Assembly: GCA_001822835.1 (NCBI GenBank)
Contig: MHSS01000002.1
Location: forward strand, 65,060 to 129,059
Source of the DNA: Candidatus Terrybacteria bacterium RIFCSPHIGHO2_01_FULL_48_17
Lineage (GTDB): Bacteria; Patescibacteriota; Minisyncoccia; Terrybacterales; 2-01-FULL-58-14
Reading direction: 5' to 3'
Length of the DNA stretch: 64,000 bases
In this document: positions 2,453-60,121 of the stretch, one piece after another
Position numbering within the stretch: the stretch's first letter is position 1
How the letters are laid out: each line of letters begins with the position of its first letter
Notes under the pieces: generated by a model
What the model was told of the DNA's origin: nothing
The model's input: only the letters and a program-made list of their open reading frames with translations
Database searches by the model: none
Made by a program: the position numbers and the translations under genes

Positions 2453-2590
2453 ATTGTAATAAGCTCAAATGTCCAAGCCCAAATGTCAAATAAATGTCCA
2501 ATGACTTAATGTCAAAGACCCGCGCATTCGGTTTTTGACATTGCTGCTTGGGATTTTGTTTGGCATTTGGATTTTGATATTGGGATTTGT

Positions 2591-3568: not shown

Positions 3569-5056
3569 ATGTCAAATAAATTCTACATCACCACGGCAAT
3601 CGCATATACGAATGCGCCGCCTCATATCGGGTTTGCCCTGGAATTGGTGCAGGCGGATGTGTTGGCGCGGCTTCACGGTCTGCGCGGCGAAAAACGTTTT
3701 TTCCTTACTGGTACAGATGAGCACGGCCGAAAAAATATGCAGGCGGCACAGGGTGCCGGCAAAAAACCTGAAGAATTTGTTGATGAAATGGCGGGGCGTT
3801 TTGAAAAGCTCGCTCGCGCATTAAACGTTTCCAACGATGATTTTATAAGAACATCCGATCAAGACCGCCATTGGCCGGGCGTTGTCCAATTTTGGAAACA
3901 ACTTCAAGAATCCGGAGATCTATACAAAGCTCAATACGAAGGGCTTTATTGTTCGGGTTGCGAGGCATTCAAAAAACAAAGCGATCTTGAAGATGGCATG
4001 TGTCCTGACCACGGCAAAGTTCCCGACAGGGTGAAGGAAGAAAACTGGTTTTTCCGTCTTTCAAAATACCAAAAAGAGCTTACGCGCATTATTGGAGCGG
4101 ACGAACTTCGTATAGTGCCGGACACCCGTAAAAACGAAGTACTGTCATTTATTGCGCAAGGGCTGGAAGACGTTTCCTTTTCGCGTCCCCGAAGGGATTT
4201 GCCTTGGGGCGTTCCGGTTCCGGGCGACGACGCCCAAACTATATACGTTTGGGCCGATGCTTTAGTGAATTATCTTACCGGAATAGGGTACGGACACGGA
4301 CCTGGGGACAGGGTTCAGGGGACAGAAAGATTTGAAACATTCTGGCCGGCGGATATTCATGTTATCGGCAAAGACATCTTGCGATTCCATGCGGTAATCT
4401 GGCCGGCAATGCTGTTGTCGGCAAGATTGACGTTGCCCAAAATCCTTTTAGTGCATGGGCACATTCTTTCCGCTGGTAAAAAGATGTCAAAAACAATCGG
4501 AAACGTCGTTGACCCTTTTGCTATTGTTGAAAAATACGGGGTAGACGCAGTACGTTATTTTTTGCTAAAAGAAATTCCGACAACCGCAGACGGTGATTTT
4601 ACTGAAGACCGATTCCTTGAGGTTTATACTTCATCGCTTGCCAATAATCTTGGGAATCTGGTAGGGAGGATTGCCGCGTTGGGTAAAGATCAGGAGATAA
4701 CAGTACAGGCAGGACAGGATATTCAGGAAGTTGCAAAACGCGCGTGGGCAGAATACGAAGCGGCGTTTGCCGCCTTGCGGCTTGATGAGGCGTTGGGTGC
4801 TGTAGATAAGTTTGTCGGTTTCGGGAACGAATTCGTTGAGCGTACAAAGCCATGGGAAGGTGAGCATAATTTGCACGGTGCCTTGCCGCAGCTTGCGTGG
4901 ATGCTTGGCAATATTGCGTGGATGTTAGCACCACTTTTGCCCGAGACCGCGCGCAAAATTTTTGACCAATTAGGAATTGATCCGGGAGATACTGCGTTGT
5001 GGGAAGGAGAGAGTATTAAAATGAAAAAGGGCGCTTCGTTGTTTCCGAGGTTTTAA
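3569..5056 (+). CDS. metG: methionyl-tRNA synthetase (short form)
   Basis: Class I HIGH-like motif (PPHIGFA), KMSKT motif, and CSGC...CPDHG zinc knuckle. Confidence 0.9.
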   Translation: MSNKFYITTAIAYTNAPPHIGFALELVQADVLARLHGLRGEKRFFLTGTDEHGRKNMQAAQGAGKKPEEFVDEMAGRFEKLARALNVSNDDFIRTSDQDRHWPGVVQFWKQLQESGDLYKAQYEGLYCSGCEAFKKQSDLEDGMCPDHGKVPDRVKEENWFFRLSKYQKELTRIIGADELRIVPDTRKNEVLSFIAQGLEDVSFSRPRRDLPWGVPVPGDDAQTIYVWADALVNYLTGIGYGHGPGDRVQGTERFETFWPADIHVIGKDILRFHAVIWPAMLLSARLTLPKILLVHGHILSAGKKMSKTIGNVVDPFAIVEKYGVDAVRYFLLKEIPTTADGDFTEDRFLEVYTSSLANNLGNLVGRIAALGKDQEITVQAGQDIQEVAKRAWAEYEAAFAALRLDEALGAVDKFVGFGNEFVERTKPWEGEHNLHGALPQLAWMLGNIAWMLAPLLPETARKIFDQLGIDPGDTALWEGESIKMKKGASLFPRF

Positions 5057-5057
5057 T

Positions 5058-5203
5058 ACTCGCGATGAGCTTTTTCGCTTTCTGCGTTCCGCCCACCGAG
5101 CGGAACGCAGGGACTCGGCCTGCGCTCCCGAGCACTCAACGCGTTGAGTGCTCGGACCATGGCCGCTCCGGCCTCGTAACCCGCTCAAAAGCTCATCGTT
5201 CGC
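5058..5203. repeat. hairpin-rich intergenic repeat, copy A (terminal inverted repeats ctcgcgatgagctttt / aaaagctcatcgttcgc; internal perfect hairpins)
   Basis: Starts 2 nt after the metG stop; arms are near-identical to the arms of copy C (42421/42573); internal 24-nt perfect palindrome gagcactcaacgcgttgagtgctc. Confidence 0.7.
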
Positions 5204-5234
5204 ATATTAAAGAAGTCATCAGTCCTCATCAAAT

Positions 5235-5831
5235 ATGTTTAGGGAAAGAGAAACAAAGGAAGATTGGCGGGAGGATTTTGAGCGTGAGGTGATTCGGCGT
5301 TCGGCAGTTTCCGATGAGGAGCTGGTACGCAAGCGCGCAGCACCCTATGAGCCGCCGGCATTTGAAATTCGGGAAGCCCGTGAACGCGATGAATATATGG
5401 TGACATCACGAGAGATTTTGGATTTGTATCGTCTTCATTCGCAGATGACGGGTGATTTGTGGCCTAAAGCGGCGCCGTCGCTCCGTCCTTATTATGAAAA
5501 GCAGCTCGAACGTGTTTGGAATAAATTGCGGTGGACAATTCGACAAGAAACGCAAGAGGCAGAACAATCAGAACCCTTTTTTGATCAAGGACAACAGGAT
5601 TTCGCAAGAAAGCTCGAGGCGCTTTGGAATTCCATGGAAGAGCTCGGAGATAATGAAGACGATCAAGAGCATCGTTTCCATCAGATTGAAATTATTGGGC
5701 GAATTATTCACAGCCTGCATATTAACGGTCCACTCGCCCGATATTTGGTACGTGATATGCGCAATTTATCTGACGAACAGATTAAAGATTTTTTTGATAA
5801 ATTAGGCAACTACTACTACGCAGTTGCGTAA
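5235..5831 (+). CDS. hypothetical acidic protein
   Basis: 198-aa ORF, charged/helical composition; no recognisable domain. Confidence 0.5.
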   Translation: MFRERETKEDWREDFEREVIRRSAVSDEELVRKRAAPYEPPAFEIREARERDEYMVTSREILDLYRLHSQMTGDLWPKAAPSLRPYYEKQLERVWNKLRWTIRQETQEAEQSEPFFDQGQQDFARKLEALWNSMEELGDNEDDQEHRFHQIEIIGRIIHSLHINGPLARYLVRDMRNLSDEQIKDFFDKLGNYYYAVA

Positions 5832-22918: not shown

Positions 22919-23026
22919 GGGTAAAAAAGCCATACGATGGATTTATAAGGTAATCCGCCTTCGCTAAAGCTTCGGCGAGATGCTCATAGTGGCATCTGCT
23001 CGAAGTTTCTCGCAGGCCACTATGGC

Positions 23027-37863: not shown

Positions 37864-37930
37864 AAGCCCGCCTCTGGCGGGAAACTCGAAATCCTAAATC
37901 CGAAATCCAAAATAAATCCAAAACAAAAAA

Positions 37931-37966
37931 TTCGTATATTCGTATCTATTCGTATTTCGTAGTATG
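37931..37966 (+). repeat. 36-nt TTCGTA-hexamer motif, copy 1 (ttcgtatattcgtatctattcgtatttcgtagtatg)
   Basis: Near-identical to the motifs at 40255-40290 and 45986-46020; here it lies between rpmB (minus strand) and tRNA-Pro. Confidence 0.7.
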
Positions 37967-37967
37967 G

Positions 37968-38180
37968 TCATCTTCCCTTTTTTGCTACTGTTCTCATGCA
38001 CTGGGTGCATGTCAAAAGACGAGTGCCTATGGCAAAACCCTTATATGTATACGGCAGCCGTAACCATTGGAGGTTTGGTTTTCTGTGAACAATTTTAGTG
38101 GGGTTATAGTGACCTCGGAGAAGTTTTCGTTTTCCACCCTTTAACCTCCCTTTGCCACATAATGCGCATTTTTTTTCCAT
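37968..38180 (-). CDS. rpmB: 50S ribosomal protein L28 (bL28)
   Basis: 70 aa, CxxC...CxxC zinc-ribbon L28 pattern with NP...NLQ core. Confidence 0.75.
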   Translation of the reverse strand: MEKKCALCGKGRLKGGKRKLLRGHYNPTKIVHRKPNLQWLRLPYTYKGFAIGTRLLTCTQCMRTVAKKGR

Positions 38181-38292
38181 AAAGTTTTGGTTATTGGGAT
38201 TTGGACATTTGGATTTTATCTGTTACCCTGTGTAAGGTAAACCCTATGCCTTATCCCTTATACCCTATACCCTATACTCTCATTTTTGCAAC

Positions 38293-39017: not shown

Positions 39018-39428
39018 ATGCCTACTATCCACCAGCTTGTGAAAAGGCCGCGTAAAAGGGCGATCCGAAAATCGACTTCGCCCGCATTGGAATATTCGTT
39101 TAATGCCATTAAAAACCGACCCACGTTTCATGCCTCTCCTTTCAAACGCGGCGTGTGTATCAAGGTAACGACTGTTACGCCCAAAAAACCAAATTCTGCG
39201 TTGCGCAAAGTTGCGCGCGTACGTTTGTCAAACGGCATGGAAGTGACGGCATATATTCCGGGTGAAGGGCATACGCTGCAAGAGCACTCGATGGTGGTAA
39301 TTCGCGGCGGGCGCGTGAAAGATTTGCCCGGCGTGCGGTATCACGTGGTGAGGGGCGTTTTGGACGCTTCTGGGGTTGAGGGAAGAAAGCGGCGAAGAAG
39401 CAAGTATGGTACAAAGCAGCCGAAATAA
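39018..39428 (+). CDS. rpsL: 30S ribosomal protein S12 (with about 13-aa insertion near the N-terminus)
   Basis: [11 protein letters not shown]...[13 protein letters not shown] core; extra segment [13 protein letters not shown] between PAL and KRGVC. Confidence 0.92.
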
Positions 39429-39447: not shown

Positions 39448-39933
39448 TTGTGGTTTTTAAGTATGCGCAGGAACCGTAAACTTCATAAAAGAGAACAACT
39501 TGATCGTTTGTATAACTCGCCGCTGGTGGGCAAGCTTATCAATTATGTAATGTACGACGGAAGGCGGCTTACCGCCGAGAGAGTTGTGTATGCGGCGCTT
39601 AAAGAGGCGGCAAAGCGCACGGAGAAAGAGCCGCTTGCGGTATTTGAGGAAGCGCTTAAAAATACGTCCCCCGTGCTTGAGGTGCGCTCACGGCGCGTAG
39701 GGGGCGCAACGTATCAGGTGCCGCGCGAGGTTCGAGGAGAGCGCAGAGTACAATTGTCGCTTCGGTGGATTGTGGCTGCATCCCGCGGACATAAAAAACG
39801 AAAGAATATGGCAGAGGCGTTAGCCGAAGAGTTGGCACTGGCAGCGCAAGGACAGGGAAGTGCGGTGAAAAAGCGGGAGGATATGCATAAAATGGCAGAG
39901 GCGAACAGGGCGTTTGCGCATTTTGCATGGTAG
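39448..39933 (+). CDS. rpsG: 30S ribosomal protein S7
   Basis: S7 signature (DGRRLTAE...ALKE; SRRVGGATYQVP). Confidence 0.92.
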   Translation: MWFLSMRRNRKLHKREQLDRLYNSPLVGKLINYVMYDGRRLTAERVVYAALKEAAKRTEKEPLAVFEEALKNTSPVLEVRSRRVGGATYQVPREVRGERRVQLSLRWIVAASRGHKKRKNMAEALAEELALAAQGQGSAVKKREDMHKMAEANRAFAHFAW

Positions 39934-40024
39934 CTTTGGCGCTCGGGTAGCCCGCCTCGCGTCTGCAGGGGACCCTTGCGTTCCCTAAGGCCGCTTCGGC
40001 GTGCCACCGCTCGCGCCAAAGCTC
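39934..40024. repeat. hairpin-rich intergenic repeat, copy B (arms gctttggcgctcggg / ccgctcgcgccaaagc; its core is shared with copy C)
   Basis: Begins at the nucleotide after the rpsG stop; about 75-nt core about 90% identical to 42463-42546. Confidence 0.7.
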
Positions 40025-40188
40025 TCTTTATCCGCATGCGCAAGGAGGAGGGGGAGAGAAAAAACTAACTCCACAGCTTCGCTCACGCTCAGCAAGATTT
40101 TCGGGACTTTTCAAAACGCACCCTTCGCGCCTTCTTAATTGGAGGGGTGCGCGGAAGCCGGAAAAGAAAGGGTAAGAAAAACGAAAGT

Positions 40189-40212
40189 AATCCGCGGTGC
40201 GGATTTTTATTT
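40189..40212 (+). terminator. terminator-like hairpin (AATCCGC-GGT-GCGGATT + TTTATTTGGG) between rpsG and fusA
   Basis: Stem with T-run; implies fusA is transcribed from its own promoter. Confidence 0.45.
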
Positions 40213-40220
40213 GGGAAAAT

Positions 40221-40255
40221 TTGACGTATACTGCTTGAAGCGTTATTGTTATAAT
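40221..40255 (+). promoter_or_regulatory. candidate sigma-70-type promoter for fusA (TTGACG-N17-TATTGT, then TATAAT)
   Basis: Same TTGACG-N17-TATT.T architecture as the candidate tuf promoter at 43274. Confidence 0.35.
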
Positions 40256-40290
40256 TCGTATATTCGTATTCATTCGTACTTCGTAGTATT
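40255..40290 (+). repeat. 36-nt TTCGTA-hexamer motif, copy 2, ending 5 nt before the fusA ATG
   Basis: ttcgtatattcgtattcattcgtacttcgtagtatt; no SD between the motif and the start codon. Confidence 0.7.
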
Positions 40291-40295
40291 TATTT

Positions 40296-42419
40296 ATGCC
40301 TCGACAATATCCAATAGAACGTCTTCGCGACATTGGCATCATTGCCCACATTGACGCGGGCAAGACAACCGTAACCGAACGGGTGCTTTTCTATACCGGG
40401 ATTTCTCACAAAATCGGGGAGGTGCATGAAGGGCAGGCCGTTATGGATTGGATGGAACAGGAGCGCGAACGTGGTATTACCATAACATCCGCCGCCACCA
40501 CTTGTTTTTGGATACCGCTTGAGTTTACCGGTCTTGTAGACCAAGCAGCGCGAAAAGCAAAAGAATTTCGGTTCAATATCATCGATACCCCGGGCCACGT
40601 TGACTTTACTATTGAAGTTGAGCGGTCATTGCGCGTGCTTGACGGGGGCGTGGTTGTATTTGATGGAGTTGCGGGGGTGGAGCCGCAGTCGGAAACCGTA
40701 TGGCATCAGGCAGACCGGTATCACGTTCCTCGTATTTGTTTCATTAACAAACTTGATCGCCTCGGGGCTTCATTTGAAAAATCGCTTGCATCAATTCACG
40801 AACGCTTAACCCCCCATGCCGTAGCGTTGCAGCTCCCTATTGGTATTGAGGATTCGTTTTCCGGCGTTGTTGATCTTTTGCTTGAAAAAGCAATTCGTTT
40901 TGAAGGGGAACACGGGGAGAAAGTAGTATATGGGGATATCCCTGAAAACATGAAAGCGGAGGTGCGAAAAGCGCGTGAAGCGCTTATTGAAAAAATTGTT
41001 GAGCATGACGATACGCTCATGGAAAAATATCTAGCAGGAGAGATGCCCTCGGTTGATGAGTTGCGCGCGGTTTTGCGAAAAGCAACCATTACAGGAAAGG
41101 TGATCCCGGTACTATGTGGCTCGGCCTTAAAAAACAAGGGTGTGCAGCCCTTGCTTGATGCGGTGGTTTATTATCTTCCGTCTCCACCCGAGCTTCCACC
41201 GGTTGAGGGTACGCACCCCAAAACCGAAGCGCAGGAAACCCGTGAGCCCGATGACAATATGCCCTTTGCCGCTTTGGCTTTTAAAGTTGCAACGGATCCT
41301 TATGTTGGGCAATTAACTTTCTTCCGTGTATATTCGGGAACCTTAGGTCGAGGATCTTACGTGTTAAATACTACTTCCGGCGAGAAAGAGCGGATTGGTC
41401 GCATTGTGCGCATGCATGCAAATACCCGAGAAGAGGTTGAGGAAATGTTTGCGGGAGATATCGGCGCAATCGTGGGACTCAAAAATACTTCTACCGGAGA
41501 TACGTTGTGTGCGCCAGAAAAACCAATTGTGCTTGAGCGTATTACCATTCCAGAACCCGTAATCTCCGTACGGATTGAACCAAAATCGAAAGCGGATGAA
41601 GAAAAACTTGGGATGGCGCTTCGCCGGCTTGCAGAAGAAGATCCCACGTTTCGTGTTTCCGGTGATCAAGAAACGGGTGATACGATTATTTCTGGAATGG
41701 GGGAGCTTCATCTTGAAATTATTGTCGACAGAATGAAACGCGAATTTTCCGTTGATGCAAATGTCGGCGCGCCACAAGTTGCATACAAAGAAACCGTTTT
41801 AACAACGGCGGAAGCGGAAGGAAAATATATTCGCCAGACGGGCGGGCGCGGGCAATACGGCCATGTATGGCTTCGGGTGGAGCCGACGGAGCGAGGATCG
41901 GGTTTTGAATTTGTTGATGCAATTAGGGGAGGAGTAATTCCTAACGAATTTATCCCTGCAGTTGGCAAGGGCGTGAAGGAGGCAATGGATAAAGGAATTG
42001 TGGCCGGTTACCCGATGGTGGATGCGAAAGTAACGCTTTATGACGGCTCGTACCATGACGTTGATTCTTCAGAGGCCGCGTTTAAAATCGCCGGCTCCAT
42101 GGCATTTCAGGAAGCAGCAAAACGGGCAAAGCCGGTTATGTTGGAACCGGTAATGAGCTTATCGGTGGTGGTACCAGAACAATTTTTGGGCGATATTACG
42201 GGGGATATTTCGTCCAGACGCGGCCGCATTGAGGAGCTTGGCGAGCGCGGACAAATGAAGGAGGTAGATTCAAAAGTGCCCTTGTCTGAAATGTTTGGCT
42301 ATGCCACGCAACTTCGCTCTATGACACAGGGAAGGGGAGCGTTTACCATGGAATTTTCACATTACGAGGAGGTGCCCGGGAATATTGCGCAGGAGATTGC
42401 GGCAGGGAAGCGGAGATAA
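40296..42419 (+). CDS. fusA: elongation factor G
   Basis: [10 protein letters not shown]1 motif, DTPGHVDF, full five-domain length (707 aa). Confidence 0.95.
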
Positions 42420-42420
42420 T

Positions 42421-42590
42421 GCTCGCGATAGCGCTTTTCGCTTTCTTCGGCTTGTCGATTTCTTGGGCGCTCGGGTAACCCGCCTCACGTCTGCAGGGTA
42501 CCCTTCCGTTCCCTAAGGCCGCTTGGCGGGCCACCGCTCGCGCCCAACAATTTTTGACCTCGTAACCCGCTCAAATCACTATCGCTCGCT
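42421..42590. repeat. hairpin-rich intergenic repeat, copy C (composite: arms like copy A, core like copy B)
   Basis: Starts 1 nt after the fusA stop; left arm gctcgcgatagcgcttttcgctttc matches copy A; right arm ctcgtaacccgctcaaa...atcgctcgc matches copy A 5170-5203. Confidence 0.7.
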
Positions 42591-42763
42591 AGAGAAATCG
42601 AGACGCTTTTCAAAACGCATCTTCTCGCGCCTAAGAATGAGGGAGGAAAAAAGAAGCCGCCGGTGGGCGGCTGTTGTTATCCCGAGCCGGGTCGAAGGAT
42701 TGATTTTTTTGATAGAAATGGTATATGATTTTTGCACGTTTAGAATTCGAAAAGGAGGATGTT

Positions 42764-43480
42764 ATGACTGCCCCGAATATCTATCTTCGCGCATGGTATG
42801 CGCGATACGGTTTCTCCGATGCCGAATCGTTTCGAGATGCTCTTCTTTCTTCTTTCTCGGGCGCGCCTCTTTTGTCACAGTTTCAGGAAAGGAAAATCGT
42901 GTTATTCCGCAGAACCCGAATATCGCATTTCGCCTTACTTGATGTCTATGACGATGGGTTTCATATTTTATTGAATCGAGAAAGAAGCGTACGCCAGTGG
43001 CTTGTTGACATCGGACACGAGCTTATTCATACGTTTCATTATGATCTTTCGACTCTTCCGCCAGTAAATCTGTTTCGAAAGATGTTCGGGGATCCCGATC
43101 CCGCGCTTGAATATTTTTGTGATTCTGTGGCACGCCGGTGGTTGTTGCAAGATCGGAACGCACGGGCATTGGTTGCACTCTTACGGTCGCAAAGATGGCA
43201 GGGCGAGGTGTTGTGGATTCCAAAACCGCTCCATATGGGCGGTTTCCCCTTTTTATGTATATATTGTAAGGGCTTGACGGATTGTTTTGCCTTGACTATT
43301 ATAATGGTTGCGCTGTATAACAGTGAAGTTAGCTTTATTAATGAAATCCCTCGATTGCGCAGTGATTGCAAAAGGAAGTCCCTCGTTTTGCTTGGGGATC
43401 TACTTTCGCAGCCACTCGCGAAGCTCGCGGGCGAAAGTAACATATGGCAGGAAAATTTGAACGCACCAAACCTCACGTAA
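42764..43480 (+). CDS. hypothetical HExxH protein (ImmA/IrrE- or SprT-like putative zinc metallopeptidase) inserted between fusA and tuf
   Basis: AAAAGGAGG SD 8 nt before the ATG at 42764; motif [13 protein letters not shown]; the 3' end overlaps the tuf start by 37 nt and contains the candidate tuf promoter, so the true stop may be earlier (possibly decayed). Confidence 0.45.
43274..43305 (+). promoter_or_regulatory. candidate sigma-70-type promoter for tuf (TTGACG-N17-TATTATAAT)
   Basis: Good -35/-10 with 17-nt spacer about 140 nt upstream of the tuf ATG. Confidence 0.4.
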
Positions 43481-44637
43481 ACGTAGGAACTGTTGGTCAC
43501 GTTGACCACGGCAAGACCACCCTGACTGCGGCAATCATGCACGGCCTGAAACTTAAAGGTCTTATTGACACCGCAGAATCGGTCGACCAGATCGATAATG
43601 CTCCCGAAGAGAAGGCGCGTGGTATTACCATAGCCCTTCACCACTCCGAATACGAAACAGAAAAGCGTCACTATGCACACATCGATGCTCCCGGACACGC
43701 CGACTATATTAAAAACATGATTACGGGGGCAGCCCAAATGGACGGTGCGGTTTTGGTGGTTTCTGCAGCCGACGGCCCGATGCCCCAGACGCGCGAACAT
43801 ATTCTTTTGGCGCGGCAGGTGGGAGTTCCTAAAATTATCGTCTTTTTGAATAAAGTTGACGCGGTTGACGATCCTGAATTTATTGATATTGCAGAATCGG
43901 AAGTGCGGGACCTTTTGAAAAAATATGAGTATCCTGGCGATGAAATTCCTGTGGTTAGGGGATCGGCGCTCAAAGCCCTTGAGGCAAAATCCGCGGATGA
44001 CGAGGCGGTAAAACCCATTTTTGAGCTTTTGGCAAAATTGGATGAGTATATTCCGGAACCGCAAAGAGATATCGACAAACCTTTCTTGATGCCCGTTGAG
44101 GATATTTTTTCCATTGAGGGTCGCGGAACAGTGGTTACCGGAAGGATCGAACGCGGGCTTATTAAGCTTAATGATGAGATAGAAGTCATTGGATTGCGGC
44201 CAACGCAAAAGACCGTGATTACGGGTATTGAGATGTTCCGCAAGAGCTTGGACGAAGGCCGGGCAGGGGATAATGCCGGACTCCTTTTACGAGGCCTTAA
44301 GAAGGAGGATGTCGAGCGCGGGCAGGTCCTTGCAAAGCCAGGAAGCGTTACCCCGCATACTGAATTTGAGTGCGAACTTTATGTGTTAACAAAAGATGAA
44401 GGCGGCCGCCATACGCCCTTCTTTACCGGTTACAAACCCCAGTTTTATATCCGAACGTGTGACGTGACTGGAGAGGTTACGCTTCCGGAGGGCACAGAAA
44501 TGGTGATGCCAGGAGATACGGTGTCGGTGAAATCGAAATTAATGGCTCCGGTTGCGCTGGAGGAGAAACAGCGGTTTGCGGTGCGCGAAGGCGGACGAAC
44601 TGTTGGTGCAGGAGTGGTTACAAAAATTATTCAATAA
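43444..44637 (+). CDS. tuf: elongation factor Tu
   Basis: [26 protein letters not shown] motifs; 397 aa. Confidence 0.97.
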
Positions 44638-45178: not shown

Positions 45179-45781
45179 ATGAAATTTCTTTTAGGAACGA
45201 AAATAGGAATGAGCCAAACATGGAAAACGGATGGGGGCGTAGTTCCGCTTACCGTTATTCAGGCGGGGCCCATGGTGGTTACTCAAAAAAAGACATCAGA
45301 AAGGGATGGTTATGAAGCCATACAAGTATCCCTTGGCAAAAGAAAACGGCTTAAGAAGCCGCAACAAGGACATCTGAAGAAGGGCAAAACTGATACCGCA
45401 CGCTGGTTGCGCGAAGCTCGCGGGGCATGGAACGTAGAGTCAGGGGCCGTTATTGATGTATCCGTATTTGTTCCAGGTGATATTGTTAAGGTTTCCGGCA
45501 TTTCCAAAGGGAAGGGTTTTCAGGGAGGTGTAAAGCGACATGGTTTTCATGGGGCTTCGGCAACGCATGGTACCAAACATGCGCATAGACAGCCCGGATC
45601 TATTGGATCTTCTTGGCCCGAGCGAGTGCGAAAGGGAAAGAGAATGGCAGGAAGGATGGGGCATGAGCGGGTTACGGTGAAAAACCTAGAAGTGGTGAGT
45701 GTGGACAAAGAGAAAAATTTGTTGGCGGTGAAAGGAGCGGTGCCTGGTGCACGGGGAACGTTGCTTGAGATACGGGGCTAG
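45179..45781 (+). CDS. rplC: 50S ribosomal protein L3
   Basis: MKFLLGTKIGMSQ... L3 N-terminus; the ORF track's upstream extension from 45116 spans a GC hairpin and is unlikely to be coding. Confidence 0.9.
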   Translation: MKFLLGTKIGMSQTWKTDGGVVPLTVIQAGPMVVTQKKTSERDGYEAIQVSLGKRKRLKKPQQGHLKKGKTDTARWLREARGAWNVESGAVIDVSVFVPGDIVKVSGISKGKGFQGGVKRHGFHGASATHGTKHAHRQPGSIGSSWPERVRKGKRMAGRMGHERVTVKNLEVVSVDKEKNLLAVKGAVPGARGTLLEIRG

Positions 45782-45784
45782 ATC

Positions 45785-45945
45785 GGATGCTTGGGATGCG
45801 TCTCGAAAAGACGTGTCGCGCGCCCAGCGAGGCGCGCGCACTCTCGCTCGGCGTTGTTCTCCCGCCAACGATTAAACTTTTAGGGAAGGCGGGAACCATG
45901 CCCGCAACGCCTCCGCGAAGCTTTTCTCAACACATCCCAAGCATC
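45785..45945. repeat. hairpin-rich intergenic repeat, copy D (arms ggatgcttgggatg / catcccaagcatc)
   Basis: Starts 4 nt after the rplC stop; shares the ggaaccatgcccgc segment with copies E and F. Confidence 0.65.
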
Positions 45946-45985
45946 TGACGAGATTTTCATTTTGTCAAAGTGGCGTGAAAAAAGA

Positions 45986-46020
45986 TTCGTATATTCTTAT
46001 CGATTCGTACTTCGTAGTAT
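45986..46020 (+). repeat. 36-nt TTCGTA-hexamer motif, copy 3, ending 3 nt before the rplD ATG
   Basis: ttcgtatattcttatcgattcgtacttcgtagtat. Confidence 0.7.
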
Positions 46021-54576: not shown

Positions 54577-55848
54577 ATGTTTGAGAAACTTTTACTTTTG
54601 TGGAAAATTTCGGAATTGCGCGCAAAGATTCTTTTTGTGCTTGGCATGCTTGCGGTGTTCCGGCTCGCCGCATCGATCCCCGTGGCCGGTGTCGACACAG
54701 AACGGCTTGCTGCATTTTTCCAGTCGAATCAGCTTTTTGGCCTCATCAATATTTTTACGGGGGGAACGCTTGAAAATTTATCAATCGCCATGCTTGGTGT
54801 GGGGCCTTATATTACCGCAACCATTATTCTGCAGTTGCTGACCATGATCTTCCCGCGTTTAAAGGAAATGTATTACGAAGAGGGCGAACAGGGGCGGCAG
54901 AAATTTAACCAAATCGGGCGTCTTTTGACCGTCCCCTTGGCGATTCTGCAAGGTTTTGGTTTTTTGCGACTTTTAGCTTCACAGGGCGTTGTAGAGTTAA
55001 CACCTATCACCACCGCAGTTAACATTGCGGTCGTAGTTGCAGGAACCATTCTTTTAATGTGGCTTGGGGAACTGATTACGGAAAAAGGTATTGGCAACGG
55101 TGTTTCGCTTATCATCTTTGCCGGTATTGTGGCATCTATCCCGCAATCACTCTTTCAGTTTTTCTCAACGTGGGATCAGACAAAACTTTTTCAAACCGTA
55201 GCATTTGCGGCAATTGCAATTATTGTTGTGGCGGGTGTGGTTTTAATTAACGAGGCACAGCGGCGCGTTCCTATTGCGTATGCCAAGCGTATCCGCGGAT
55301 TTCGTATGTACGGTGGTGTTTCAACGCACCTTCCTATACGCGTAAATTCCGCTGGCGTTATTCCCATTATTTTTGCCTTGTCCATCGTGCTTTTTCCGGG
55401 AATGATAGCCCAATTTTTCACTACGGTGGATGTTCCTCAAATTGCAAGTATCGCTAATACAATTCAAAATATTTTTTCCGTAAATAACTGGACGAGCATA
55501 TTTATCTATTTTGGTTTAGTGTTTATATTCACTTATTTTTATACCGCTGTCATTTTTGATCCCAAGGAAATTTCACAAAACATCCAGCGCTCAGGCGGAT
55601 TTATCCCAGGAATTCGGCCGGGCTCGCCCATGGTAAGCCATCTCTCGCGTATTATTAACCGAACTACTCTTGTCGGAGCTTCGTTTTTGGGAATCATTGC
55701 GGTGTTGCCACAAGTGATGCAGCAGGGCTTGAATCTGCCCGCCCTCACCATCGGGGGAACGGCGGTATTGATTGTCGTGTCGGTGGTGATTGAGACGATG
55801 AAACAAATAGAAGCGCAGCTGACAATGCGGGAATACGAAGGGTTTTAG
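54577..55848 (+). CDS. secY: preprotein translocase subunit SecY
   Basis: 10-TM SecY pattern, 423 aa, canonical position after L15. Confidence 0.93.
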   Translation: MFEKLLLLWKISELRAKILFVLGMLAVFRLAASIPVAGVDTERLAAFFQSNQLFGLINIFTGGTLENLSIAMLGVGPYITATIILQLLTMIFPRLKEMYYEEGEQGRQKFNQIGRLLTVPLAILQGFGFLRLLASQGVVELTPITTAVNIAVVVAGTILLMWLGELITEKGIGNGVSLIIFAGIVASIPQSLFQFFSTWDQTKLFQTVAFAAIAIIVVAGVVLINEAQRRVPIAYAKRIRGFRMYGGVSTHLPIRVNSAGVIPIIFALSIVLFPGMIAQFFTTVDVPQIASIANTIQNIFSVNNWTSIFIYFGLVFIFTYFYTAVIFDPKEISQNIQRSGGFIPGIRPGSPMVSHLSRIINRTTLVGASFLGIIAVLPQVMQQGLNLPALTIGGTAVLIVVSVVIETMKQIEAQLTMREYEGF

Positions 55849-55850
55849 AG

Positions 55851-56000
55851 CTCGCGCAGGGCCATTTGCGAAACGCGACAATCCCCAGCGAGGATTGTCG
55901 CTCTGTCCTCGCCGCGCTCCCCCGCATACGGTTTATATTTTATAAGGAAGCGGGGACCATGCCCGCGCGGCTGCGAAGGTTCGCAAATGTCCCTTCGCTC
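55851..56000. repeat. hairpin-rich intergenic repeat, copy E (arms cgcagggccatttgcgaa / ttcgcaaatgtccct); same subfamily as copy F
   Basis: Starts 3 nt after the secY stop; about 25-nt terminal segments identical to 59705/59814; internal perfect hairpin gcgacaatcc/ggattgtcgc. Confidence 0.7.
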
Positions 56001-56099
56001 ACCCCAAAAAAGTTGCTTGGCTGCTTCATTCATTGTTTCGTAAAGAGAAGGGTAGGATAAAAGGAGACCGGCCGTGCATTGCACGGCCGGTTTTTGTTT

Positions 56100-56777
56100 T
56101 TATCCTGCTTCGTCTGATCCATCTTCATGATTTTCACCCATGATCGCTTTGAGCAGCTTTTCGGTGGGAAAGATGACGAGCGTGCCCTTTACCCATTTTT
56201 CGCGGAAATAACCCCATTGAATTAAACCATCAACGGTCCATGGGCCGTCTGACAATCGTATGAGGTCTTCCTTGGGGAATCCCGCAAGGCGGTTCCATAT
56301 ACGGCAGAGAATCATAAAGGTTTCAACAAAAGATTCATCCTCTGCTTTTCCAAGACGCAGCCCTCTTTCAAAATAGACGCTGGTTGGAGAATACCGATCC
56401 GTCCGAGAGTTTAGAGTATTTTCCAATTCTAGATCCCAAAAAGCGGCCCTACAGAAAGATTGGATGAGAACTCTTTTGCCGTGTTCGTCAATCCAGACCT
56501 CTTCCGCGTCTGTTTTTTCTGGTGCGGTTTTCCGTTTCATTTGCCTTTCTTCTTTTGTTGCGCTTTCAAGGATTTTCTGGAAGGCATCCGGGTTGCGTTC
56601 CTTCAGACGTATGACATCTGCGACGATTTTCACTTCCTCGTCTGTAAGCCCCAGCATTTGGGCTGCTCTCCCGGCTTTATTTTGGGAGCAGTGGGCGCGT
56701 TGCCCAAGCTCAACGAGAAAAGGGTTTTGCCGTAGTGCTTCCCGAATTCTTTCCGCAAGCTCTTTTTGTGAGCGCAT
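56100..56777 (-). CDS. hypothetical protein (opposite strand, between secY and adk)
   Basis: 225-aa ORF with plausible composition; no family recognised. Confidence 0.5.
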   Translation of the reverse strand: MRSQKELAERIREALRQNPFLVELGQRAHCSQNKAGRAAQMLGLTDEEVKIVADVIRLKERNPDAFQKILESATKEERQMKRKTAPEKTDAEEVWIDEHGKRVLIQSFCRAAFWDLELENTLNSRTDRYSPTSVYFERGLRLGKAEDESFVETFMILCRIWNRLAGFPKEDLIRLSDGPWTVDGLIQWGYFREKWVKGTLVIFPTEKLLKAIMGENHEDGSDEAG

Positions 56778-56997
56778 TGCTCAACCTCCGGAGGCGGGCG
56801 CGTTGCCGCTTTCAAAGAGCATAGAGAAAGCGTAGTAAATAATAGTTGGCTTGTCAATGCTTCATGGGGACACGCCGAAAGTTTTTATTATTTTTGGTTC
56901 GGACCTCTTGAGATCCTACTATCGAGGTCGGACCTCGATAGCGATAGTTTGTTGTTGCAGGAGCCCATTTTTCTTGTTACTGTATGGTTGAACTTTC

Positions 56998-57567
56998 ATG
57001 CAGAGGCGCTACGATGCGGTATTTTTAATTGGGAGACCTGGCTGCGGCAAGGGGACGCAGTCGCGGCTATTGCAAAGACGTGCTGGTTTTGCCTTGGTGA
57101 AAACCGGTACTCTTTTTCGGGCATTGGCAAAAAAACAAACAACACTTGGCCGTAACGTCAAAAAAACGCTCAATCGAGGAAAACTCATGCCGCCATGGCT
57201 TGCGTTTTCCGTAGTGCTGGATGCATCGGGACGTGTCGATGCAAAGAAGCCGGTGTTGTTTGATGGCAGCCCCCGTACTAAAAGAGAGGCCGAATGGCTC
57301 ACTGCTGCTTTACCATGGTTTGGCAGAAATCATATTGCCGCCGTGCATCTTTTCATACGTCCGCAAGAATCATACCGCCGGCTCATCTTACGCAAAAGAC
57401 ACGACGATACTCCCGTCGTGATTCGTGCACGTCTACAAGAGTTTGACCGTAATGTAATGGCTGCCCTTCGTGTGCTTCGTGAAAAGCGGCTGCTTAAAAC
57501 GGTCAAGGGAGAACGACCCATCCAGGAAGTAGCACGCGATATTCGCAGGGTATTGCATTTGACATAA
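56998..57567 (+). CDS. adenylate kinase-like P-loop NMP kinase (paralog 1, no zinc lid)
   Basis: P-loop GRPGCGKGTQ; short LID region; tandem with the canonical adk. Confidence 0.7.
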   Translation: MQRRYDAVFLIGRPGCGKGTQSRLLQRRAGFALVKTGTLFRALAKKQTTLGRNVKKTLNRGKLMPPWLAFSVVLDASGRVDAKKPVLFDGSPRTKREAEWLTAALPWFGRNHIAAVHLFIRPQESYRRLILRKRHDDTPVVIRARLQEFDRNVMAALRVLREKRLLKTVKGERPIQEVARDIRRVLHLT

Positions 57568-57576
57568 CGTGGATTT

Positions 57577-58260
57577 ATGCAAAAAGCTGTTATCATTTTT
57601 GGTCCGCCAGGTGCGGGTAAGGGGACACAAGCAGAGATGTTTGCGGACGCGTTTGGTTTTTTGCATCTTGAAACAAGCCGCATTATTGAGGAGGCGTTGG
57701 CGACGCACGATTCAACGGAATATATTATTGCCGGAAAATCATACACCTACGGGCAGGAGAAAGAAAATTTCGACAAAGGAATTTTGGTGGAGCCGGAGGT
57801 AGTTGTACATTGGATGGTTGAGGCGATACGAAGCCATGCCCGTGCGGGAAAATCGATTGTTTTTTCTGGATCTCCCCGTACCCTCTTCGAGGCAGAGCAC
57901 CTATATCCGGTATTGCATGAATGTTTTGGCGGCAATGGCTTTTTTTGTTTTCATCTAACTGTTCCGCCAGATCTTTCAGTAAGCCGTAACATGCGGCGGC
58001 GTATTTGTGTCGCATGCCGTCTACCGCATGAGCCCAATAAAACGGTGTTGGAGTGTACGCGTTGCCGGGGAAGTTTAGTGACGCGCGGTGAACTTGATTC
58101 GCATACCTCGCTTCGCAAGCGGCTCGAAGAGTTTGAAAAACGCACCCTGCCTGGAATTTATCACTTTGAAGATCAAGGTCGTGCGGTATCGCGGCTGGAC
58201 GGTTCGCGCCCACCCGATGATGTTTTTAGGCATTTGTGTGCATTGCTTGGTTTAGTATGA
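57577..58260 (+). CDS. adk: adenylate kinase (zinc-lid type)
   Basis: GPPGAGKGTQA P-loop; LID with CVACR...CTRCRG zinc knuckle. Confidence 0.88.
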   Translation: MQKAVIIFGPPGAGKGTQAEMFADAFGFLHLETSRIIEEALATHDSTEYIIAGKSYTYGQEKENFDKGILVEPEVVVHWMVEAIRSHARAGKSIVFSGSPRTLFEAEHLYPVLHECFGGNGFFCFHLTVPPDLSVSRNMRRRICVACRLPHEPNKTVLECTRCRGSLVTRGELDSHTSLRKRLEEFEKRTLPGIYHFEDQGRAVSRLDGSRPPDDVFRHLCALLGLV

Positions 58261-58997
58261 AACACTCTCCACAAGATATTGTCGCAATGCGCGCGTCGGG
58301 GCAAACCGCCGCGCGTATCCTTAAAGAAGTGGCCTTGCGCGTTCAAGCGGGTATAACGCCAAAAGAACTTGATCGTATTGCGCGCAAGGAAATTGAATCG
58401 GCAAAAGTTAAGCCCGCTTTTTTGGGCTATGATAAATTTCCCGCGGTGTTGTGCGTTTCGGTAAACAGCGTTGCGGTGCACGGCGCGCCAAGCGATATTG
58501 AATTTTGTGAGGGGGACGTCGTGGGGCTTGACTTTGGCGTTATCAAAAACGGCTGGTATTCCGATTTGGCTATAACAGTAGGGGTTGGCCAAATTTCCTC
58601 TGAAGCACAAAAACTTATTACGGTATGCAAAACAGCGCTTGAACGAGCAATTTCAGTATTAAAAGAAGGGGTGAGTGTAGGTGATATTTCCTCCACAATT
58701 CAAACATACGTTGAGGGGAATGGCTTTTTGGTTATTCGTGAACTTGTGGGACACGGCATTGGGAAAAACCTTCACGAGTTGCCTCATGTGCCCAATTTTG
58801 GGAAACCCGGCATTGGGGAAGTGCTGGAAGAAGGGGCAACGATTGCCATTGAGCCGATTATTTCGGTTTCCGACGAGCACGTGGAGCTTGATTCGGACCA
58901 GTTTAGCTGGCGTACAAAAAAAGGGTCGCTTGCCGCGCATTTTGAACATACCGTTGTAGTTACCAAAGAGGGCGCGGATATTTTGACATTGCCGTAA
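58257..58997 (+). CDS. map: methionine aminopeptidase type I
   Basis: MetAP pita-bread fold motifs (AVHG, DVVGLDFG, H..GHGIG, E..FAIEP); ATGA overlap with adk. Confidence 0.9.
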   Translation: MKHSPQDIVAMRASGQTAARILKEVALRVQAGITPKELDRIARKEIESAKVKPAFLGYDKFPAVLCVSVNSVAVHGAPSDIEFCEGDVVGLDFGVIKNGWYSDLAITVGVGQISSEAQKLITVCKTALERAISVLKEGVSVGDISSTIQTYVEGNGFLVIRELVGHGIGKNLHELPHVPNFGKPGIGEVLEEGATIAIEPIISVSDEHVELDSDQFSWRTKKGSLAAHFEHTVVVTKEGADILTLP

Positions 58998-59006
58998 GAA
59001 AAAGAT

Positions 59007-59327
59007 ATGCTGCACATAGCATCTTTGAAAAGAAGAGGAATCCCCATGGACTTTCCCCATAACTTTTCCTACGATCTACTTAAGTGTCTTGGAGTTTTGC
59101 GGATCAACGATGACGGAACAGCGACATTACAATTTTTTCAAGGCGCATCTTCTGTTAACGCACCGCTAGGATTTGTTGCGGTAGATCATATGGGTATTGC
59201 AATTGCCCATATTGTAGATAAGGATGTCGCCGGTGAATTTATAAAAATGATCCCTGGAGCCGTCTTCCGCGTTTTCAAGATAGTTCGGCTTCCGAACTCG
59301 ATCTTTCTTTTTGGCGAGCCCAGTTAG
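59007..59327 (+). CDS. hypothetical protein (occupies the position where infA is usually found, but is not IF-1)
   Basis: 106-aa ORF; no S1/OB IF-1 signature. Confidence 0.4.
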   Translation: MLHIASLKRRGIPMDFPHNFSYDLLKCLGVLRINDDGTATLQFFQGASSVNAPLGFVAVDHMGIAIAHIVDKDVAGEFIKMIPGAVFRVFKIVRLPNSIFLFGEPS

Positions 59328-59345
59328 GGTTCGCTTTTTGCCATT

Positions 59346-59630
59346 ATGCGTTTTTCAATACCCAAACAGCGCTATATTTTGACCACTGCGTTGCGGCGCA
59401 TCGGATATGCGCCGAGTCGCCGCGGGCAGAGTTTTGTGCGCAAACTTTCTTCAACGCCCTATCCCCAATTTCATTTATATGTGGAAGAAACCGAACGCGG
59501 ATGGGGGTTTAACCTTCATTTGGATCAGAAGCAGCCAACGTATGAGCCGGGGCGGGCGCACGCAGGGGAGTATGAGGGTGAAGTAGTGGAGCGCGAGGCC
59601 GCGCGAATACGCGCGTTTATCGATACATAA
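59346..59630 (+). CDS. hypothetical protein
   Basis: 94-aa ORF, charged; no family recognised. Confidence 0.4.
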   Translation: MRFSIPKQRYILTTALRRIGYAPSRRGQSFVRKLSSTPYPQFHLYVEETERGWGFNLHLDQKQPTYEPGRAHAGEYEGEVVEREAARIRAFIDT

Positions 59631-59694
59631 AGCTGGTCGGGCACATTTCGAAAAGGAGAGTGCTCGCGCAAGCCCCTTTTACTTTCCCGGTTTC

Positions 59695-59838
59695 CACGAG
59701 TTCACGCAGGGCCATTTGCGAAACGCGCGCAGCCCCAGCGTGTCTGCGCGCTCTGTCCTCGCCGCGCTCGCCCCGATGGCCATCGGGGCACCATGCCCGC
59801 GCGGCTGCGGAGGTTCGCAAATGTCCCTCCGCTCACTC
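59695..59838. repeat. hairpin-rich intergenic repeat, copy F (same subfamily as copy E)
   Basis: Arms cacgcagggccatttgcgaaacgcg / aggttcgcaaatgtccctccgctcac; internal hairpins gcgcag...ctgcgc and ccccgatgg/ccatcgggg. Confidence 0.7.
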
Positions 59839-59976
59839 GCGGGAGGATCATAACGCGCTCAAAGTGCTACGCGCCCGCAAGAATAATCTGTTTTTCTCAA
59901 TCTTAATGCACTAGTCGCGTTTTTTCTGGAAGACGCACGTTCCTCCCTTTGTTTTTAGAGAGGAAAAGAGAAAAGG

Positions 59977-60003
59977 AAGCCGCTGGTGGCGGCTTTTATG
60001 TTT
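59977..60003 (+). terminator. rho-independent terminator (AAGCCGC-TGGTG-GCGGCTT + TTATGTTTG); same hairpin type as 42655-42675
   Basis: 7-bp stem + T-run; a homologous gaggaaaa...aagccgcNggtggNcggct module follows copy C. Confidence 0.5.
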
Positions 60004-60092
60004 GTATCAGCAACATTACTATGGGGATCGGATCCCCATAGTTTGGTTAGCGCAAATTTGTGGCGTTCGTTTTCTTGCGCCTTTCCGTTTGC

Positions 60093-60121
60093 TTGACAGG
60101 TCGCTTCTCCTTTGCTATCAA
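60093..60121 (+). promoter_or_regulatory. candidate sigma-70-type promoter (TTGACA-N17-TATCAA)
   Basis: Consensus -35 with 17-nt spacer, about 120 nt upstream of the Cys-rich small ORF / ruvX. Confidence 0.4.

Follow-up and report, generated by a model that had tools for sequence, protein, structure and literature searches.

Hairpin repeats behind rpsG and fusA in a Terrybacteria str region as probable truncated derivatives of R1, a family of small mobile structured repeats

The str region of Candidatus Terrybacteria bacterium RIFCSPHIGHO2_01_FULL_48_17 was analyzed in a stretch of 64,000 nucleotides (nt) of contig MHSS01000002.1 (positions 65,060 to 129,059 of the forward strand, hereafter the window; 48% GC), a contig that recurs across several aquifer assemblies. 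Two GC-rich hairpin repeats, copy B behind rpsG and copy C behind fusA, are probably lineage-specific derivatives, truncated internally, of small mobile repeats of ~160 nt that are non-coding and form a family for which the name R1 is used here. R1 elements are inserted beside or within the final codons of genes, facing the same way as the gene, and they nest into or recombine with each other, as in copy C and in a composite element at 59660–59873. The original prediction had described repeats on both sides of fusA that share a core, with outer arms around C that match a third repeat, copy A, and with a downstream module, a T-run hairpin and a promoter-like site behind each. This composite anatomy was correct. 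It left out the larger cross-phylum mobile family with four more copies in the window, the probable origin of the downstream module (module 2) as a decayed 3′ end, and an open reading frame (ORF) between fusA and tuf (42764–43480).

The cores of B and C, which had been put at about 90% identity, aligned at 92.5% identity over 80 nt (39938–40017 versus 42466–42544; blastn, E = 1.5e-24). B is closed by a terminal stem of 11 base pairs, an 11-nt perfect terminal inverted repeat that takes in the AG of the rpsG TAG, and its ends read GGCGC-TC-GGGT ... ACC-GC-TC-GCGCC. It folded at −51.3 kcal/mol (z = −3.8; 0 of 200 shuffles were equally stable) and the C core at −43.2 kcal/mol (z = −3.7), and the outer stems of the two are distinguished by a single compensatory double change (TTTGGCGC/GCGCCAAA versus TTGGGCGC/GCGCCCAA). 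The match of the outer arms of C to A was borne out at 79% identity over 33 nt for the 5′ arm (against A 5054–5086, with a TAA stop codon within both) and 81% over 32 nt for the 3′ arm (against A 5172–5203, with an exact run of 18 nt; E = 2.8e-4), and the entire copy C folded as a single nested stem of −62.8 kcal/mol. C had been placed at the fusA stop, which holds for the A-type arm and not for the core, since the core begins 43 nt past the stop. Contigs of three other assemblies of the same organism stop inside the copies, at 39963 in B and at 42475 and 42487 in C, as expected of repeats.

Module 2, claimed to be shared by both sides, was weak when compared on its own, with an exact match of only 14 nt (E ~0.07). 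It was recovered in a three-way alignment, where the stretches behind B and C aligned across module 2, a purine-rich tract and the terminator-like hairpin. The B-side stretch (module 2 plus terminator) is 80% conserved over 143 nt in a relative with 88% identity in elongation factor G (EF-G) (L087, 5660–5802). The end of the B-side module (ACCCTTCGCGCC) is complementary to the 5′ arm of B, including the TC × TC mismatch of the family, and the module aligned weakly with the 3′ part of R1 (5.7 bits, E = 0.12). By these likenesses module 2 is probably the decayed 3′ end of an older R1-type element and would be an example, faintly indicated, of the decay of R1 elements to remnants.

Table 1. Features of the window, in order of position
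Feature	Coordinates	Strand	Basis or remark
Copy A, full R1 element directly after TAA of metG-like gene	5050..5208	+	R1 model, 45.4 bits, E 4.5e-12
rpsL	39018–39428	+	
rpsG	39463–39933	+	
Copy B, 92-nt GC-rich imperfect hairpin	39932..40023	+	starts inside rpsG TAG; fold
Module 2 after B, GCTTCGCTC..CGCTCAGC..TTTTC..ACCCTTCGCGCC	40071..40135	+	weak R1 alignment
Intrinsic-terminator-like hairpin AATCCGCGGTGCGGATT with T-run, purine-rich tract before	40189..40212	+	scan; conserved in L087
Promoter-like TTGACG-17-TATTGT upstream of fusA	40221..40249	+	scan, 9/12 matches
TTCGTA-repeat leader, ends 6 nt before fusA ATG	40249..40289	+	repeat family D3, three window copies
fusA	40296–42419	+	
Copy C 5′ outer arm (A-type), first letters = fusA TAA	42417..42449	+	match to A
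Copy C core, B-type hairpin nested where A-type element has branched core	42462..42548	+	92.5% identical to B
Copy C 3′ outer arm (A-type)	42558..42589	+	match to A
Module 2 after C (ACGCTTTTCAAAACGCATCTTCTCGCGCC)	42596..42633	+	14-nt exact match, extended alignment to B module
Terminator-like hairpin AGCCGCCGGTGGGCGGCT, weak T-run	42655..42680	+	scan
Promoter-like TTGATT-18-TATGAT upstream of ORF 42764–43480	42700..42729	+	scan
Unannotated ORF between fusA and tuf	42764–43480	+	overlaps tuf start by 37 nt
Promoter-like TTGACG-17-TATTAT upstream of tuf, past hairpin 43223–43245	43274..43302	+	scan, 10/12 matches
tuf	43444–44637	+	
R1 element directly after rplC TAG	45781..45948	+	R1 model, 82.4 bits, E 4.8e-24
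R1 element directly after secY TAG	55842..56009	+	R1 model, 75.7 bits, E 7.1e-22
Composite, R1 copy 59692–59843 inside A-type-like arms 59660–59697 and 59844–59873	59660..59873	+	R1 model, inner copy 67.6 bits

A full R1 element is an imperfect palindrome of 150–170 nt, reaching ~240 nt where the arms are extended. P1, a long stem that joins both termini in all copies, starts with a GC clamp and a conserved TC × TC mismatch and encloses a three-way junction; inside it lie, in order, the P2 hairpin with loop CCCAGCGWG, GCTCGG, P3, tCGCTC, the P4 hairpin and aACCWTGSCCGCTC. In the window copies the P2 loop is CCCAGCGAG or CCCACCGAG, the linker contains CTCG, P3 encloses P4 and ACCATG(C/G)CCGC is unpaired. 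Stem sequences are wholly different between copies, and ~35 unpaired bases are near-invariant. Copy A, which follows the gene for a class I (Met) tRNA synthetase, folded at −75.6 kcal/mol (z = −7.6), and the outer arms of the 59660–59873 composite resemble those of A and C. A sixth member was found in a Patescibacteria metagenome-assembled genome (MAG; L035, 73% EF-G identity), directly after the TAA of a co-oriented gene.

Metagenome contigs were scanned with the motif pattern CCCASCGWG..CTCGS..ACCWTGSCCGC, which occurred in at least 119 stretches; 80 loci were examined and gave 121 pattern matches, ~105 of them true R1 members (among the matches listed). Thirteen loci were dropped by eye as chance matches in high-GC coding sequence. 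In a MAFFT alignment of 76 sequences, 78% of cells were paired in the four-helix structure versus 56% in shuffles, and covariation was 0.549 versus 0.194 (reached by 0 of 500 shuffles; slid-partner controls ≤0.225). The model-fitted alignment of 101 distinct sequences gave values of 82% versus 60% for pairing and 0.522 versus 0.168 for covariation. The R1 covariance model, trained without any window sequence, recovered four window copies at 82, 76, 68 and 45 bits and the L035 element at 67 bits. Because one R1 locus (L151) adjoins a valyl-tRNA synthetase (ValRS) gene whose product is 96% identical to Candidatus Aminicenantes MAG proteins, the family spans at least Patescibacteria and Aminicenantes. 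Two further features of the consensus were tried and rejected: a small ORF from the conserved ATG/TTG in aACCWTGSCC, whose peptides vary freely and for which the purine-rich P4 strand is not universal, and a possible pseudoknot that would pair the P2 loop (GCGAG) with the junction (CUCGC), whose A/T polymorphism is uncompensated (39 of 98 broken). Gene callers also placed small ORFs inside R1-type elements, of 84 amino acids at 59660–59914 of the window and of 69 amino acids at L214 8459–8668; both are probably spurious.

Mobility was apparent at orthologous sites. Between birA and coaX of Aminicenantes, the element is present in three genomes (L151, L104 and L214; ValRS 91–100% identical), with the birA stop codon (TGA or TAA) exactly at its 5′ junction, and the site is empty in two others (L215, 81%; L216, 77%, a complete genome), where the genes lie 1–2 nt apart. 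The rplC–rplD spacer measures 242 nt with the element here versus 12 nt in a 77% relative (L089). R1 elements are thus present or absent at both sites, as is looked for in a mobile transposable element of the miniature inverted-repeat type (MITE), and are likewise small and non-coding with terminal inverted repeats. Several loci carry 2–3 copies, in both contig orientations, with ordinary housekeeping genes and no transposases between paired copies, and many metagenome contigs end at an R1 copy. No recurrent neighboring protein family or transposase was found among the 972 ORFs of 119 loci (among the matches listed). Flanking dinucleotides of one subfamily (TA..TA, CG..CG, TTG..CAA) behave as stem extensions, not direct repeats.

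Position relative to genes was scored in 93 full-length copies by adjacency to the stop codons of ORFs of ≥100 codons; orientation was judged solely in this way because crude ORF maps mis-called known genes (L035, L122). A co-oriented stop codon lay within 12 nt of the element 5′ end in 22 of the 93 copies and within 40 nt in 32, and a convergent ORF end lay near the 3′ end in 2 and 5 copies, respectively. All six window elements start at or shortly past a stop codon, with rpsG, fusA, rplC, secY and the metG-like gene among the genes upstream. Repetitive extragenic palindromic sequences (REPs) and bacterial interspersed mosaic elements (BIMEs) likewise occur as numerous intergenic copies that lie for the most part behind ORFs and often touch or provide the stop codon.

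B and C were connected to this family by several features. The ends of B, read through to GGCGC-TC-GGGTAG ... ACC-GC-TC-GCGCC, have the terminal design of R1, a GC clamp with the TC × TC mismatch, and nearly match those of one R1 member (L179). Behind rpsG, L087 carries the same 13-nt 5′ arm as B (CTTTGGCGCTCGG) followed by the 5′ half of an R1-type element (17.8 bits), which in its interior matches the window element behind rplC at 97% identity over 34 nt; a 1.1-kb insertion with a HicA toxin pair comes next, and then the module 2 ortholog and terminator at 80% identity. The C core occupies the exact place of the branched core of A, and the 59660–59873 composite, in which an R1 copy sits in A-type-like arms, is its parallel.

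A number of results weigh against descent from a mobile R1 family. The R1 model did not match B or C (≤6 bits), no B-type sequence was found in the other 1.5 Mb of loci or in two metagenome scans, and only two B-type copies are present in 82.6 kb; the family link of B and C rests on shared termini, nesting context and the orthologous L087 site. No transposase or autonomous parent element with R1 termini was found in the 1.5 Mb of loci, and comparison of filled and empty birA–coaX sites gave at best AAAAAG, in an A-rich context, as a target duplication. The near-invariance of ~35 unpaired bases across two phyla is unusual for MITE interiors and suggests a function beyond selfish spread, and any effect of R1 at the RNA level is a prediction from sequence. 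Furthermore, core, module 2, purine tract and terminator follow in the same order behind rpsG and fusA, so that the likeness of B and C could have come from local duplication or gene conversion between sites 2.5 kb apart. In that case B and C would be immobile, either one segment of a 3′ untranslated region (3′-UTR) duplicated between str genes or hairpins homogenized by gene conversion, and the resemblance of their termini to R1 would be incidental. This explanation, which the lack of B-type copies elsewhere and of an R1 score for B or C also favors, is nevertheless rather unlikely: identity is uneven (92% in the core versus ~60–70% in the downstream modules), which suggests that only the hairpin took part in a younger event, the C core lies precisely inside A-type arms at the position of the branched core, the first 13 nt of B are common to the R1-type element at the same L087 site, and the B termini (GCGC-TC-GGGTAG ... 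ACC-TC-GCGC) match L179.

Two other explanations concern what R1 itself is. R1, and by descent B and C, may be chiefly a functional cis-acting RNA of the gene-sense strand, a 3′-UTR or intercistronic module whose spread is secondary and which might be bound by a conserved protein or RNase, link its folding to the termination of translation, or self-cleave; we consider this unlikely. The invariance of unpaired motifs while all four helices covary speaks for it, as do the strong preference for sense orientation beside stop codons (22 versus 2), the fact that all six window elements lie in sense relative to highly expressed genes with a separate terminator downstream, the conservation from Patescibacteria to Aminicenantes, and a two- to three-fold excess of G·U over A·C pairs in P2 and inner P3. 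That excess is confined to these helices, however. P1 and P4 are balanced, and with 122 G·U versus 98 A·C pairs in R1 stems overall the pairing constraint looks strand-symmetric, like that of DNA palindromes. In 91 of 93 copies it is the complementary strand that folded better, by ~11 kcal/mol, whereas selection on a sense RNA fold would favor the reverse; as a strand test, fold energy was rejected, since it mainly reflects loops that are C-rich on the gene-sense strand and names no functional strand. Orthologous sites filled in some genomes are empty in close relatives, approximately one third of the copies in one-directional gene contexts are antisense by the crude ORF map, no Rfam ribozyme or other family matched even at E up to 10, and the candidate loop–junction pseudoknot lacks compensation. 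It is just as doubtful that R1 elements are REPIN- or PATE-like substrates of a HUH tyrosine transposase of single-stranded DNA (the REP-associated tyrosine transposase, RAYT, or IS200–IS605 type) encoded once elsewhere per genome. Such an enzyme would act at the replication fork, where it would recognize hairpins with short unpaired tags (GCTC ahead of each helix, ACCA behind P4) in single-stranded DNA; insertions should then lack a target duplication, and their orientation should follow replication and through it the direction of genes. The elements are hairpins from end to end with no convincing target duplication, are biased in orientation relative to genes and nest within other palindromes, as reported for REP dimers, and their units of tag, hairpin and tail are similar to REPs with their CGTC/GTAG tags and CCA tails (PMC3733652). 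Against this, no Y1/HUH gene was found in the annotated parts of the window or beside any copy (~1.5 Mb of fragments), R1 is branched and four to eight times as long as a REP, its consensus is without the defining GTAG or CGTC tag, and replication polarity alone does not explain placement exactly at stop codons.

If B and C are derivatives of mobile R1 elements, as we favor, the elements would be transcribed together with the upstream gene, and their very stable 3′-UTR or intercistronic structures may protect or process the upstream mRNA. With separate terminators and promoter-like leaders, they may split the str/S10/spc cluster into smaller transcription units, and they may be mobilized in trans by an enzyme that recognizes the invariant unpaired motifs. 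Far more speculative, and improbable as it stands, is a version in which R1 is a cross-phylum structured nucleic-acid device that, through its invariant loops, would draw in a conserved host factor or catalyze cleavage exactly at the ORF end; each insertion would then set an mRNA 3′ end or processing site and uncouple cistrons, and R1 would be a mobile "operon splitter" co-opted, together with the TTCGTA leaders found behind several copies, by reduced genomes such as those of Patescibacteria.

Promoter-like and terminator-like sites were located with consensus scans, using shuffles of the region as background. The region contained 13 promoter-like sites versus 6.3 ± 2.8 in shuffles and 11 terminator-like sites versus 8.5 ± 2.9. 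A GC hairpin with a T-run had been predicted after each copy, and hairpins were found at both, 40189–40205 behind B with a good tail (TTTATTTGGG) and 42655–42672 behind fusA with a weak one (GTTGTTATCC); promoter-like sites, expected after them as TTGAC...TAT elements, were picked up at 40221–40249 and 42700–42729. The repeats themselves are not terminators, since neither B nor the C core has a T-run right after it (CTCTCTTTATCC behind B; CAATTTTTGA, inside the outer stem, behind the C core), and the scanned sites are 165 nt (B) and 65 nt (C) further downstream. Given separate terminator-like hairpins and promoter-like sites behind B and C, it is plausible that rpsL-rpsG, fusA and tuf are separate transcription units, as had been suggested, and the idea is also consistent with relatives that carry whole accessory genes between rpsG and fusA (L087, L088).

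The TTCGTA-repeat leader (ATTCGTATATTCGTAT..ATTCGTAYTTCGTAGTAT) occurs in the window at 37925–37965, 40249–40289 and 45980–46020, stopping 0–7 nt before the start codons of a 44-amino-acid lipoprotein-like ORF (37964–38097), fusA and rplD, all without a Shine-Dalgarno sequence. In relatives it was seen at L166 1299–1325, L211 2995–3027 (minus strand) and L087 924–961, and in L166 and L211 it is directly 3′ of an R1 element. The leader might act as a promoter or translation leader specific to this lineage, either moving along with the repeats or making up for them. Periodic GGATTT / TTTGGATTT motifs were seen in other upstream regions (window 2555–2589, 17228–17257 and 38169–38217; L087 5990–6060), and in L087 they stand in for the TTCGTA leader before fusA. 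The terminators at 40160–40212, 42637–42680, 56040–56095 and 59958–60000 have a common design of purine-rich tract, GC hairpin and T-run that looks bidirectional, and those behind fusA and at 59958–60000 are seemingly homologous by eye. A structured GC-rich stretch (CCGCCTTCGCTAAAGCTTCGGCGAGATGCTCATAGTGGCATCTGCTCGAAGTTTCTCGCAGGC) lies behind a terminator-like hairpin at 22950–23020.

rpsL, rpsG, fusA, ORF 42764–43480, tuf and the S10/spc genes are all on the plus strand. ORF 42764–43480 has a strong AAGGAGG ribosome-binding site and a HELIH (HExxH-like) motif in its product, which had no match in Pfam, PHROG or NCBIfam. A terminator-like hairpin (43223–43245) and the tuf promoter-like site both lie inside it, and its last third is probably non-coding. 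Relatives show that the str region takes up insertions, and its non-compact layout is not special to this genome: gaps vary widely among relatives in Patescibacteria, from 1 to ~1500 nt between rpsG and fusA and often ~500 nt between fusA and tuf (~480–600 nt in ~10 loci: L013, L015, L017, L018, L020, L021, L027, L031, L034, L048). In L087, 1.7 kb separates rpsG from fusA and includes a HicA toxin/antitoxin pair and a small membrane-like ORF, and the final 15 nt of rpsG are duplicated on both sides of an 80-nt insert (features at L087 4333–4428 and 5176–5629). In L088 two hypothetical genes lie between rpsG and fusA. An unrelated short repeat (CTGAGCGAAGTCGAAGG) occurs at L087 890–905 and 4394–4412, at L166 ~1335–1365 and within L173 369–1457, where it is in frame inside queA; in frame it encodes ..PERSRRVE... 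Outside the window, ~7–9 kb upstream, gene calling gives isoleucyl-tRNA synthetase as two neighboring ORFs (L091 1–2058 and 2121–2930), with 62 nt between the catalytic part and the anticodon-binding part. Hypothetical genes adjoining elements were also searched: 5235–5831 gave only a sub-threshold GemA match in Pfam (22.8 bits versus a cut-off of 27) and 56100–56777 only a far sub-threshold sigma-54 match in NCBIfam (15.1 bits versus a cut-off of 396), and no PHROGs were found for either gene.

Counterparts were sought in several collections. At the gathering threshold, Rfam 15 found only a tRNA in the window and nothing in 18 canonical R1 loci; at E up to 10 it gave chance-level matches in 39900–43460 and 55800–60100 and none in L122. 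No curated Rfam 15 model of a known structured RNA family matched the elements, hammerhead, twister, HDV-like, pistol and hatchet ribozymes included. The canonical R1 element had no blastn match in plasmid and phage collections, exact scans of viral contigs with the X-arm 18-mer and the B/C core pattern found none, and the B/C 18-mer was absent from the metagenome contigs, a collection that does not hold this genome, as a known JGI contig carries the 18-mer. In the EF-G scan of species-representative genomes the best relative was 73% identical, and blast saw no element in any locus; an 18.6-kb extension of the window contained no more copies. A literature search for such repeats in the candidate phyla radiation or Aminicenantes, and for the motif strings, returned nothing relevant. 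Integron attC sites were rejected, since R1 termini read GCTCRGG ... CCYTCGC, not RYYYAAC ... GTTRRRY, and upstream genes are housekeeping genes and not cassettes; on inspection of the consensus, K-turn, tRNA-like and hammerhead readings were ruled out together with attC.

If B and C do derive from R1, even Patescibacteria genomes of ~1 Mb tolerate, and may use, a mobile structured repeat in their most conserved operons, which would account for the fragmented str/S10/spc cluster and for the assembly breaks there. The R1 family is the more interesting product, a branched element of ~160 nt with invariant loops, found in two phyla and placed in sense beside stop codons. Through it one can test how small repeats are mobilized when no transposase is linked to them, and whether such repeats shape the ends of mRNAs in uncultivated bacteria. 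In annotation, an R1 covariance model would remove spurious small ORFs within elements, such as those of 69 amino acids in L214 and 84 amino acids at 59660–59914.

Among known systems, R1 has in common with the structured RNAs of Rfam 15 (self-cleaving ribozymes, leaders and small RNAs) conserved loops and junctions and four covarying helices; it differs in that neither the gathering threshold nor E up to 10 gave a match, G·U is not in excess of A·C, and it behaves as a mobile, multi-copy element. Hairpin MITEs (Correia/NEMIS of Neisseria, ERIC/IRU of enterobacteria, RUP and Nezha) are closer: like R1, they are non-coding, 100–250 nt long and bounded by terminal inverted repeats, with the whole element one hairpin, are inserted by genes and co-transcribed, have filled and empty sites among relatives, and form nested and truncated derivatives. 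Unlike them, R1 shows no clear target duplication (that of Correia or RUP is TA), no insertion sequence sharing its ends was found as a parent, the interior and not the ends alone is strongly conserved and structured, and the 5′ end lies preferentially at stop codons in sense orientation. Rickettsia palindromic elements (RPEs), some of which are classed with CGTC REPs (PMC3733652), are also small palindromic repeats of a reduced genome whose insertion is tolerated at or inside coding ends; RPEs are often in frame within genes and translated, whereas the window R1 copies are outside the reading frame except for last codons or the stop.

REPs are found chiefly behind ORFs and often provide the TAG stop codon with their termini; they build mosaics within other palindromes, and related genomes differ in how many they carry (PMC3733652). 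With REP/BIME repeats, including the GTAG and CGTC super-families (Di Nocera et al., 2013; PMC3733652), R1 shares GC-rich palindromic intergenic structure, a preference for sites behind ORFs whose flanking genes are one-directional or convergent, termini that supply or abut the stop, mosaics and nesting in palindromes, variable abundance between related genomes, short unpaired tags beside hairpins and presumed transcription as 3′-UTR hairpins. By definition a REP is a single hairpin of 20–40 bp with an unpaired GTAG or CGTC tag (PMC3733652), whereas R1 is ~160 nt and branched and its consensus has GCTC/CGCTC before helices, GTAG being seen only inside the paired P1 of B and L179. No RAYT gene, typical of REP systems, was found in the annotated genes of the window or in the 119 loci. 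At 150–240 nt versus 20–40 nt, R1 is also larger, with a conserved three-way junction and ~35 invariant unpaired bases, and it is one recognizable family across two phyla; REP families are mostly confined to a single species or genus. R1 is apparently an undescribed family of a familiar, REP- or MITE-like kind, and not a new kind of system.

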